15,302 bases of DNA. It comes from a virus. The position numbers are program-made. Of the stretch, positions 9,001-12,000 are shown piece after piece. The DNA lies in the UHGV virus genome UHGV-1740366; one strand, 5' to 3'. Numbering within the stretch: position 1 is the first letter of the stretch; each line of letters begins with the position of its first letter.

Positions 9001-12000
9001 GTTTTTGAGCCACTTATAGACAGCTCTTTCGCTAACTCCACAAGCCTTCGCAACTTCAGGGATGCCGACACCTTTAATCGGCTCATCAAGATTTTGCATA
9101 GGGATATCCTTTTTCGTACTTTCAGTACGCATTATGATTGAACTGAAAGTTTTTGCAAGTGCTTTAGTATCGTACTCATGGTTCAGAATGAAAAAGTGCG
9201 CAAAGAATTCGCCCAGCGGCTAGCGCAAGCCTGTAAAGAAGCTGGTCTTGATGAACATGGTAGGGGAATGGCTATAGCCCGTGCCCTTTCTCTTTCGTCC
9301 AAAGGCGTTAGCAAATGGTTTAATGCTGAGTCTTTACCGCGTCAGGAAAAAATGAATGCGCTTGCGAAATTTCTAAACGTTGATGTTGTTTGGCTTCAGC
9401 ACGGCACTTCGTTAAATGGAGCGAATGATGAAGATACTCTTTCATTTGTTGGCAAATTAAAAAAAGGGTTAGTGCGCGTGGTTGGTGAGGCAATTCTTGG
9501 TGTTGATGGTGCCATCGAGATGACCGAAGAGCGCGATGGGTGGCTCAAAATTTATAGCGATGATCCAGATGCCTTTGGCCTTCGTGTGAAAGGAGACAGC
9601 ATGTGGCCCAGAATAAAATCAGGAGAATATGTACTCATTGAGCCTAACACCAAAGTATTCCCGGGTGATGAGGTGTTTGTCAGAACCGTTGAAGGACACA
9701 ACATGATTAAGGTTCTTGGCTATGACAGAGATGGAGAATACCAATTTACAAGCATCAACCAAGACCACAGGCCAATAACGTTGCCTTATCATCAAGTAGC
9801 AAAGGTGGAGTATGTGGCTGGTATTCTGAAGCAATCTCGCCATCTGGATGACATCGAGGCAAGGGAGTGGCTGAAAAGTTTGTGACTTCAAGTACGCGAC
9901 AAGCCCCGTCCTTCAGGGCGTGGAGGATGTCAAAATAACTTTAAATAACACACCACCAACATTTAACACATTGAATTAAAAAACCTACAATATTTGATGA
10001 GAGGCGTTATGGAACCGGTCAAAATTAAACCATCTGTGGATTATATTGAAACCTATGCGGACTTCGCTAGTTTTGCTCCACTACCGGGAGCGGAAAAAAA
10101 TCTCATTTGTATACATTTTATCGCAAACAAGTCAATACCTGCGGTACTATCCCAAAATGATATACCAGATCAACCAGGTAGAGCGAATATGCAGATAGGC
10201 TCTGTAAATGAACTCAATCAGCAATGCACTGTGATAATGCCAATGGCACAACTAAAGGCTCTTCAGGAGAATATAGTTCTTCTTTTCGAACAATTAGAGG
10301 CACAAAACTCTAATGGAGCGAAGTCGTAATGCAACAACCGGAAGAAGTAGGTGATTTAACTATTACTTACAAAACATCAAGTATTGTTAAACCACTGCAA
10401 GTTTCCCTGAATAACGTTAATACTCGCGATTTCATGATGTTCATGGAAACAGCAAAAGGTAATCTGTTTTCTACGCCTATTTCCTCTTATTCACCAAAAA
10501 ACATGGTGGATGATGCGACCAATTCCCAGCTAACTGCTACAATCGTAGATAAAGGAGGGGTTGCCGATTGTAAAGGACAATCTAATGTTATCCCACCGTA
10601 CGAGGAAACTCCTATACAGGGAACCGCAATGTCCGATTTGAGCAGAAACGAAATACAGGCACTTCTGAAGGCAAATAAAGCTGAAGTGGATGCAGTGGCC
10701 TCAAAAATGCAGGCTGATATGGCCAAATGGCGTGAACTAATGGCTTCAGATATAAAGGAGATGAAGCATTTAGTTGTTACTCAGCACGAACAAATCAACA
10801 GTCGTCTGGACATACAATCGAGTAGAATTGAGAGTGCCCTTGACTCCCAATCAAAAAAGATCGATGCAGCTCTTTCTGTTCAAGAGGCAAAGTTAGAAGG
10901 TAAGCTTAGTGATGTTAAGCTTGATATAATCAAATGGGCCCTTGGCTTGCCAGCATTAGCATTTGCTGTATATAAAATCTACGGATTGCTCTCTGGAGTC
11001 TCAACCCCCTAATACACACCCGGCCTCAGTGCCGGGTTTTCTTTGCCCAACGTTCGCCCACCTAAAAACACATAATCGATTGTATTTGTTGATGTAACTC
11101 GCTAAACCATGCAGTTCTGATCCCTGCCGCATAACCTTCATCAGCCACATTTTCAAAAATAAATTTCCTTATATATCAGAATCATACTTCGTAGAGTTAA
11201 TAAATCACCAAAATTCGTACCAATAGTTCTTGATAATATCGAACTATTGGTTCATTATTATCGTCATCAGCAGGACGCATTACTCACCATGGCGGTGAAT
11301 ATACAACGATTCAAGCAAGAATCTACGGCGCTGACAAAGCGCAATAACCAAAGTGAACTTTGGGGTGAATGCAGAAGCTAACCTTCTCGGCGGAGGCGCT
11401 TTGCAATGATTACGCGACCGGAGTTAGTCGCCCGGCTGTATTCACCGCCAAAGTTCATCAGGAGGTCTATATGACACGCAGAACTCAGTTCAAAGGCAAT
11501 TCACGTTCTCGTCGTCGTGAGCGTTTAAAGGCAAAGGCATTAGCTAACGGCGTGCTGGCCCGCGAAGAAGCAATAAGTTCAGAAGTATTACACCGCCCTA
11601 CTCTAAGCAGAGCGCAGATTCAGGCTAAAGGTACTCACGAAACGCCTGAGCGCATAGAAGACGCTAAGCCAATTAAGTTCATGGCACAGGGCGTGATCTG
11701 GCAACAGAAAGAATACAGACGCAATCTGGAGCGAGCGGCCATTGTGTTCGCGAATGAGTTTGGACATAAGCAACCAGAAACTGGTGTATGTCTTCCAAAC
11801 GTAGCTCTTTACGCGGCAGGCTACCGGAAATCAAAACAACTGACGGCAAGATGACTTGTGTTGGTCGCCAGAAAATGAAATTAGGCAGCAAACCACTTAT
11901 TTGAGAGGAATTAATATGTCATCAATCCGCTTAACTACGAGAATGAAAGAGGAAATCGCTCGTAACGCTTTAATTAAGTCCGGGGTGTTCACTGAACTTG

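Follow-up and report, generated by a model that had tools for sequence, protein, structure and literature searches.

A two-gene module in the exchangeable cI-to-N slot of a lambdoid Escherichia coli prophage as a candidate phage-exclusion system

The 15,302-nt stretch of virus genome UHGV-1740366 analyzed here (hereafter the window) covers early genes of a lambdoid Escherichia coli prophage and represents its early region. Directly downstream of its cI-type repressor gene lie two small genes, A and B, which form a real, conserved and uncharacterised two-gene module in a slot that carries defence systems. A preliminary description of this stretch had proposed the pair as a candidate exclusion or abortive-infection system expressed in the lysogen. 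Our comparisons lead us to favour the same reading, that A-B is a lysogen-expressed phage-exclusion or abortive-infection module, although we hold it tentatively and rate it just short of an even chance. The features discussed are collected in Table 1.

Comparative data show that A and B are both genuine genes. Their open reading frames (ORFs) run on the plus strand and overlap as TAATG, just as first described, with the TAA of A at 10327-10329 and the ATG of B at 10329-10331. Protein A, previously given as about 106-111 aa and soluble, could be set at 106 aa, as both the Shine-Dalgarno sequence and the RefSeq start of WP_000433877.1 agree with the ATG at 10009; an alternative TTG at 9994 would fall upstream of the predicted transcript start. 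The Yersinia cassette has a similar layout, in which a -10-like hexamer precedes TTTGGTGAGAGG. Identity to the Yersinia prophage proteins is 51% for A and 54% for B. Nonsynonymous divergence (dN) was 0.26-0.43, while synonymous divergence (dS) was saturated, so that only the qualitative statement that dN is far smaller than dS holds.

Along the immunity region the genes and signals follow the order cro, cI, A, B, terminator, OL/PL-like region and N. The module therefore occupies the place that rexA-rexB take in lambda, and this gene order confirms the rexAB-equivalent position proposed earlier.

The interval between cI and N behaves as a slot for cargo that is exchanged at sharp junctions. In blastn comparisons with two sister prophages (loci L016 and L017), homology stopped at 9890, 5 nt past the cI stop codon, and resumed at 11015-11017, about 5 nt past the stop codon of B. 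Among 5,426 complete E. coli genomes, 40 carried the cassette at 99.3% identity or more, and about 35 others matched only the last ~80 query bases, which correspond to the terminator. The slot of L016 and L019 holds a HigB-family toxin, a helix-turn-helix (HTH) protein and a 134-aa protein; searched against PADLOC, the L016 proteins matched the models PD-Lambda-2_A (E 6e-43), PD-Lambda-2_B (E 4e-50) and PD-T4-9_C (E 2.5e-11). PD-Lambda-2 is an experimentally validated abortive-infection defence and a HigB-like three-gene system of the toxin-antitoxin (TA) type (PMC9519451). An identical cI protein (WP_002431456.1) precedes the cassette in L001 and the PD-Lambda-2-like genes in L016. Three further loci (L017, 2971-3975; L018, 2471-3475; L021, 2419-3321) carry in the slot an SDH family Clp fold serine proteinase of 300-334 aa, which had no PADLOC match and is a candidate for another uncharacterised cargo of this slot.

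Published work agrees with this picture. Both bstA and rexAB have been located in the cI-N interval, which Owen et al., citing Degnan et al. 2007, call a hotspot of mosaic diversity (PMC8585504). The suggestion that genes in this position serve defence in other phages is thus borne out by the PD-Lambda-2-like system behind an identical cI and by rexAB and bstA. Given the sharp junctions and the defence occupants of the slot, the positional argument of the preliminary description is sound and stronger than its author could know.

At the DNA level, a search of 50,697 phage records for near-identical sequence returned only a 31-nt match, and the cassette was found in none of the isolated phages searched. 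The matching stretch (9904-9934) begins 14 nt into the cargo and is identical in Stx-converting phages; its copy in 933W (57866-57896) closely follows the YgiW-like gene L0136 and the hokW locus on their downstream side, and a single E. coli plasmid matches as well. The stretch may represent a linker or boundary that morons have in common. At the protein level, tblastn of the phage records detected a homologue of B only in HK542/HK244 (30% identity) and no match to A.

The B family is small and tied to prophage repressor loci. A collection of 5.8 billion proteins yielded 34 relatives, from Escherichia, Klebsiella, Yersinia, Serratia and Providencia, and 6 of 185,579 species-representative genomes, all Enterobacterales, carried B. 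In PHROGs, B belongs to phrog_14825 (E 8e-129), a group of unknown function. All 41 IMG/VR loci with the B core had a co-oriented cI-type ORF upstream. The repressors preceding B cassettes were of many kinds and included HTH-only types. The order repressor-partner-B also recurred in Yersinia, Providencia, Klebsiella and Rac-like prophages and in HK542. In every locus read, a small partner gene stood directly upstream of B, and in most cases its stop codon overlapped or abutted the start codon of B. A few cassettes (L022 and L025) have no adjacent repressor, yet the partner gene is still found upstream of B; the minimal unit is therefore the pair and not the linkage to cI.

At least three partner families, unrelated to one another, occur with the conserved B core. 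The first, type 1, is A itself, whose hidden Markov model matches reach members from Providencia and metagenomes. Type 2, a 143-162-aa phrog_5893 protein unrelated to A, is found in many prophages as well as in HK542 and HK244. The third type is a zinc-ribbon-like CxxC...CxxC protein of 118 aa (L040, 1990-2346; L042, 2008-2364), which pairs with B proteins having yet another N-terminus. The partner type went together with the N-terminus of B: a beta-hairpin-helix domain ('GxLTISY...DFM') was present in 19 of the 20 loci with a type-1 partner and in 0 of the 36 loci with other partners, a contrast that overstates independence because many loci are near-identical copies and adjacent genes share their history. 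The neck motif of B, by comparison, was common to cassettes of all partner types, and L045 is a chimera of a type-1 head and an HK542-type anchor; head, core and anchor therefore recombine as modules. The cassette is not unique: it is one allele within a broader modular family, to which the rex-position genes of HK542 and HK244 also belong. A comparable design was seen in the slot of L020 (2708-3503), behind a lambda-type cI, where a 145-aa small beta-rich, type-2-like protein is followed by a 123-aa tail-anchored coiled coil that has no B neck motif, i.e., a like architecture with a different membrane partner.

Some Klebsiella copies were decayed. In L011 (3476-4492), a frameshifted copy, A is truncated to 81 aa and the C-terminal part of B is kept, and in L012 (902-1912), B is split into ORFs of 60 and 163 aa. 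The module thus erodes in cryptic prophages.

Five segments could be distinguished in B. The AlphaFold2 (AF2) model places a small hairpin and helix at the N-terminus, which we propose as the domain that docks A, and a single helix from residue 103 to 221. Between the two lies a linker with low predicted local distance difference test (pLDDT) scores. Across 23 homologues the invariant columns of the neck were D103, E108, A111, L113, K117, E119, V120, A124, M127, M131, W134, R135 and E136. The long coiled coil of the preliminary description is present, but its heptad-like character is not: hydrophobic autocorrelation reached r=0.45 at lag 11, against 0.10 at lag 7, the repeats read INSRLDIQSSR / IESALDSQSKK / IDAALSVQEAK / LEGKLSDVKLD, and one length difference examined in the homologue alignment equalled exactly 11 residues. 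The single C-terminal transmembrane anchor claimed earlier corresponds to one hydrophobic segment that is short and marginal for a membrane span. In the present allele this segment comprises just 13 apolar residues (WALGLPALAFAVY) between K203 and K217, with a crude Hessa-scale sum of +4.5 kcal/mol, whereas the homologues of HK542 (-0.7) and Providencia (-0.5) have canonical helices. A fold search of the B model against PDB gave matches that are meaningless because the model is one long helix.

Protein A is acidic and belongs to a tiny family, with 13 profile matches and 12 representatives among 1.84 billion proteins. Its AF2 model is a beta3-alpha fold of moderate confidence (pLDDT 74.5; predicted template modelling score, pTM, 0.45). 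The model bears a weak likeness to COMM domains, from which A differs by its 6-11% identity and simple topology, and a Pfam scan gave no COMM match at E<=1. Searches of Pfam, NCBIfam, PADLOC and PDB at permissive E-values returned no match to A, the Pfam scan found no DNA-binding domain, and a fold search against viral structures retrieved uncharacterised proteins only. An origin of A and the N-terminal domain of B by internal duplication was considered and rejected (hhalign probability 0.8%).

The transcription signals point to expression from the repressor transcript. The candidate promoter ahead of A, reported in the preliminary description, was found again and is the sole plus-strand site with at least 10/12 matches in the 15.3 kb of the window. 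When the 123-nt gap between cI and A was shuffled, a site of at least 10/12 arose in 2.4% of cases (P about 0.02); weaker promoter-like sites were no more numerous in the region than expected by chance. The site thus beats chance, but it does not hold as a feature of the cassette in general: its sequence is not conserved across homologous cassettes, and several of these have gaps of only 31-50 nt between cI and the partner gene, without room for a promoter. An own promoter in the present allele is plausible from the sequence. No operator-like repeats were seen in the promoter region; the promoter would therefore be constitutive. The 123-nt gap contains no terminator-like site, and cI is the probable source of read-through transcription into A-B. 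We infer expression in the lysogen because A and B lie on the same strand as cI, no terminator separates cI from A, the gaps elsewhere are as short as stated, and a terminator follows B.

The terminator itself had been described as a strong element of the cassette. The hairpin is real, but it is common to the ~35 E. coli genomes without the cassette and nearly identical in HK542. Because it lies outside the exchanged segment and is present in prophages with other cargo, it belongs to the phage backbone and not to the cassette. Further downstream, the palindrome at 11219-11251 (ACCAATAGTTC-N11-GAACTATTGGT) overlaps the -35 element of a PL-like promoter and is likely the OL operator of the present immunity type; no operator matching it was identified at OR. 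An Rfam scan of 8700-12000 returned nothing credible.

The AT bias of the cassette is real, though small. Instead of the roughly 37% GC against 50-55% in flanking genes estimated earlier, we measured 0.408 for A-B, 0.455 for both cI and the whole-window mean, and 0.49 for N. Like morons, A-B is present or absent between homologous genomes and deviates modestly in composition, but it does not have a terminator of its own. With a small drop in GC, a terminator not owned by the cassette and a promoter that is not conserved, the "classic moron signature" had been overstated.

Comparison with known systems gave no relative of established function. Apart from coiled-coil noise, no model of PADLOC-DB v2 matched A, B or their homologues (B matched HEC-07 only, at E 0.009, which is such noise; A matched none). 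Neither protein had a family in NCBIfam, a sequence relative in PDB or an above-threshold family in Pfam. Scans of Pfam (E<=1) and PHROGs (E<=0.1) matched no model for SieB or other named exclusion proteins; in sister prophages, super-infection exclusion protein B is annotated as a separate gene. Nor did Pfam and NCBIfam reveal a DNA-binding antitoxin domain or a toxin family of type II TA systems in either protein. Literature searches found no functional study of A, B, the HK542/HK244 genes or their relatives.

The closest parallel in layout is RexAB, a system that acts against superinfecting phage by depolarising the membrane. Like rexAB, the module lies directly downstream of cI, co-oriented with it and before the terminator and OL/PL; both consist of a gene for a soluble protein followed by one for a membrane protein, dispensable for the phage and, in the case of A-B by our reading, carried on the repressor transcript. 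Neither A nor B has sequence or profile similarity to the Rex proteins. RexB is a polytopic membrane protein, whereas B has a single C-terminal hydrophobic segment and is otherwise predicted to be helical stalk and linker. RexB has also been described as an ion channel (PMC8585504), in contrast to B with one marginal segment and a stalk of ~100 residues. RexA is a DNA-binding protein (PMC11077077), and A is an acidic 106-aa beta3-alpha protein. As far as the sequences tell, A-B thus resembles RexAB in layout while sharing neither homology nor the polytopic second protein. BstA and PD-Lambda-2 share with A-B the slot and the logic of expression, but their proteins are unrelated to A and B; BstA is a single protein that localises to phage DNA replication sites (PMC8585504).

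HK542 and HK244 carry the nearest named relatives (HK542_035; 144 aa + 206 aa), likewise a two-gene cassette in the rex position of lambda-immunity phages and before a near-identical terminator. Their second protein is a true B homologue, 30% identical over residues 81-217 (E 1e-11), and has the neck motif of B. It differs from B in having no N-terminal hairpin domain and in having a canonical transmembrane helix with a Pro/Gln-rich periplasmic tail. Homology between A and the HK542 partner was rejected, as the two gave no alignment; the HK542 pair corresponds to phrog_5893 and phrog_5820, both groups of unknown function.

The preliminary description had recognised no motif in either protein. 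This holds for A, but B has a sub-threshold match to the Pfam family CCDC90-like/DUF1640 (PF07798; MCUR1, CCDC90B, yeast Put6/Put7), with 28.1 bits against a gathering cut-off of 33.5. Matches to DUF1640 were obtained for 21 of 23 B homologues, all of them sub-threshold (best E 7e-7). We know of no bacterial DUF1640 member of known function. Like members of this family, B has a coiled-coil stalk, which is clear, and an N-terminal head on the same side; the C-terminal anchor at the end of the stalk is marginal in the present allele and canonical in the HK542 and Providencia homologues. The DUF1640 architecture consists of head, beta-layer neck, stalk and transmembrane domain (PMC6801532), and its beta-layer motif has been reported among trimeric coiled coils (PMC4786415). 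The invariant K-A-N-K-A-E of B (residues 114-119) is similar, but not identical, to the DUF1640 motif [aliphatic]-A-T-K-[polar]-[DE] (PMC4786415); in the AF2 monomer it lies within a continuous helix. Moreover, a disordered linker and not a head domain precedes the neck of B. Profiles of the B core and neck matched PDB at the level of coiled-coil noise, with the solved family member 6h9l at E 0.34 and lost when the neck-only profile was used. On these profile data, B is no more than a possible member of the DUF1640/CCDC90-like family.

Taken as a whole, the data are compatible with the following model. A-B would be a two-protein accessory module and exchangeable cargo of the cI-to-N slot in lambdoid prophages, transcribed in the lysogen together with cI as far as the backbone terminator and, in the present allele, probably also from its own promoter. 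Being translationally coupled, A and B are presumably produced in linked quantities. The C-terminal hydrophobic segment of B would hold the protein to the inner membrane on the cytoplasmic side; B would oligomerise through the invariant neck and the hendecad stalk, and would display its N-terminal docking domain, to which A may bind, on a flexible tether of ~50 residues. The variable head formed by A and the N-terminus of B would most likely recognise a product of the superinfecting phage; the conserved core of B might then act at the membrane, either by permeabilisation or by sequestering a phage or host factor, so that infection is aborted or excluded. Such action would be RexA/RexB-like without relatedness. 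A conserved core with swappable partners is the pattern expected of specificity subunits feeding a common effector or scaffold, and this pattern, together with the other occupants of the slot, makes phage exclusion or abortive infection the best single reading. The reality of the genes, their position and pairing, the exchange in the slot and the co-variation of partner and N-terminus are observed; membrane topology, oligomeric state and A-B binding are inferred, like expression in the lysogen, and the anti-phage role and the effector step are hypothesised.

Several points weigh against this reading. The main weakness is that no enzymatic, catalytic or pore-forming effector domain is visible in B or A. 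The defence role is derived from position and architecture only, and since neither protein is homologous to a characterised defence protein, it amounts to guilt by association. The hydrophobic anchor of the present B allele is marginal for a transmembrane helix, the slot also holds genes with no assigned role, the Clp-fold protease being an example, and the shared history of the loci reduces the force of the co-variation counts.

Among the alternatives, A-B could serve lysogenic conversion or host fitness without any connection to phages, for example by organising the membrane or in envelope stress, and would then be comparable to DUF1640 scaffolds such as MCUR1 or to tail-anchored stress proteins. 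The sub-threshold DUF1640 matches in 21 of the 23 B members would fit, since characterised DUF1640 proteins are membrane scaffolds (PMC6801532, PMC7519068), as would the 11-residue amphipathic repeats of B with their weak apolipoprotein-like matches; lysogen-expressed morons, furthermore, often benefit the host (PMC3594210). Yet the family is essentially limited to Enterobacterales prophage repressor loci (6 of 185,579 species representatives; 40 of 5,426 complete E. coli genomes), and swapped partner specificities are more typical of functions engaged in an arms race, which leaves this alternative unlikely though not far-fetched. A role for the prophage itself, with A-B tuning the lysis-lysogeny switch, induction or maintenance from the membrane, would account for the near-exclusive linkage to repressors in the 41 IMG/VR loci and for the co-transcription that we deduce, and the invariant neck of B could bind a conserved host factor. 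RexA is reported to bias the lambda switch, so that rex-position genes can act on it (bioRxiv 10.1101/2021.04.19.439022, PMC11077077). However, an identical cI is found with a PD-Lambda-2-like TA-type system, and other cargo also takes the slot; a cassette that is swapped behind an identical cI would be dispensable for the switch. Given also that cassettes persist without an adjacent repressor in L022 and L025 and that the acidic A has no detectable DNA-binding domain, we regard a switch function as distinctly unlikely.

We consider it very improbable that A-B is a TA-like addiction pair that stabilises the prophage, with B as the membrane-active toxin, A as the antitoxin protein and abortive infection at most as a by-product. 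The translationally coupled operon with the small gene first, the predicted membrane targeting of B and the TA-type cargo (HigB-like PD-Lambda-2) in the same slot are in line with such a pair, but A does not have the DNA-binding fold typical of type II antitoxins, and Pfam and NCBIfam contain no TA model that matches. B, at 227 aa and with a long stalk, is also unlike the known small membrane toxins. The truncated A next to a retained C-terminal part of B in L011 argues weakly against a lethal free toxin. A function in the lytic cycle that is placed here by happenstance, such as a lysis or assembly accessory resembling the tail-anchored coiled-coil XhlA of PBSX, is hardly credible: while the architecture fits and the slot of L020 contains a still shorter protein of this kind, orientation and position put A-B in the cI transcript, silent for lytic promoters and upstream of OL/PL, Pfam gave no XhlA or holin match at E<=1, and A-B is dispensable cargo.

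The exclusion or abortive-infection reading can be extended from this allele to the whole family. The B core might define a new Enterobacterales-wide, repressor-linked defence family, in which at least three unrelated, interchangeable soluble partners (A, phrog_5893 and the zinc-ribbon protein) act as phage sensors on matching B N-termini and feed one membrane-tethered effector with a mechanism unlike Rex, Sie, TA and the catalogued systems; we see this broader proposal as possible but doubtful. A-B is one of many candidate systems among the repressor-linked accessory and exclusion cassettes of prophages, and it sits at the prophage locus most highly transcribed during lysogeny. If its role is indeed anti-phage, it would represent a defence family without homology to catalogued systems and with an unusually clear split between sensor and effector, the partner being swappable and the membrane-tethered core conserved. 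It would also provide a first function for bacterial DUF1640-like proteins and for the rex-replacing genes of HK542 and HK244. The junctions, 5 nt past the cI stop codon and ~5 nt before the t_imm-like hairpin, delimit a searchable cargo slot in lambdoid prophages, and mining of this cI-N slot, as was done for the P2/P4 hotspots, could yield further systems.

Table 1 Features of the cI-to-N region in the window (positions in nt; residues refer to protein B)
Feature	Position	Strand	Description
cI-type repressor gene	9178..9885	+	Upstream neighbour of gene A; Pfam Peptidase_S24 (E 4e-16) and HTH_3; phrog_4
Exchangeable cargo segment	9891..11016	+	Holds promoter, gene A and gene B; delimited by blastn against sister prophages L016 and L017
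Candidate sigma-70 promoter	9963..9991	+	TTAACA-17-TACAAT; 10/12 match
Shine-Dalgarno sequence of gene A	9999..10004	+	GAGAGG, 4 nt before ATG 10009; read from sequence
Gene A, type-1 partner	10009..10329	+	106-aa acidic soluble protein, pI 4.75
Gene B	10329..11012	+	227-aa tail-anchored coiled-coil protein; coupled to A through TAATG; RefSeq WP_001187007.1 'CCDC90 family protein'
B residues 7-46	10347..10466	+	Predicted small beta-hairpin (7-14/23-31) and helix (32-46); AF2 pLDDT 82-86
B residues 48-98	10470..10622	+	Variable acidic linker, predicted disordered; pLDDT 35-46; columns not conserved
B residues 101-136	10629..10736	+	Nearly invariant neck motif MSDLxRNExQALLKANKAEVDAVASxMxxDMAKWRE
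B residues 137-200	10737..10928	+	Hendecad (11-residue) coiled-coil stalk
B residues 200-222	10926..10994	+	C-terminal hydrophobic anchor; marginal transmembrane helix; KD19 maximum 1.49
Intrinsic terminator, lambda t_imm-like	11018..11045	+	Hairpin 11018-11037 (7 bp, 6 G-C), then TTTTCTTT T tract
OL/PL-like region	11219..11258	+	Perfect 11-N11-11 palindrome over TTGATA-17-CATTAT; ends the immunity-region slot
N antiterminator gene	11472..11854	+	Downstream neighbour; Pfam N_peptide (E 1.7e-16); phrog_271

In the remainder of the window, the minus strand carries genes for NinG, Dam, an HNH_3+AP2 endonuclease, a primase-helicase, an HTH_36 replication initiator and cII as well as a cro-like HTH gene; on the plus strand, the cI-type repressor gene, A, B and the N antiterminator gene are followed by an Nmad5 (nucleotide modification associated domain 5) gene. 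The latter (11856-12539) lies directly after N and, with a GC content of 0.40, is AT-rich like the cassette. The lowest GC content of the window (0.35) was found in the HNH_3+AP2 ORF (4792-5403, minus strand), which resembles a homing endonuclease and adjoins the primase-helicase gene. The replication-initiator gene (7474-8271, minus strand) contains, at 7896-7980, 3.9 tandem copies of a 21-bp repeat, which encode three copies of GGAGAAR and are probably, by analogy with lambda O, an iteron-type origin inside the gene.

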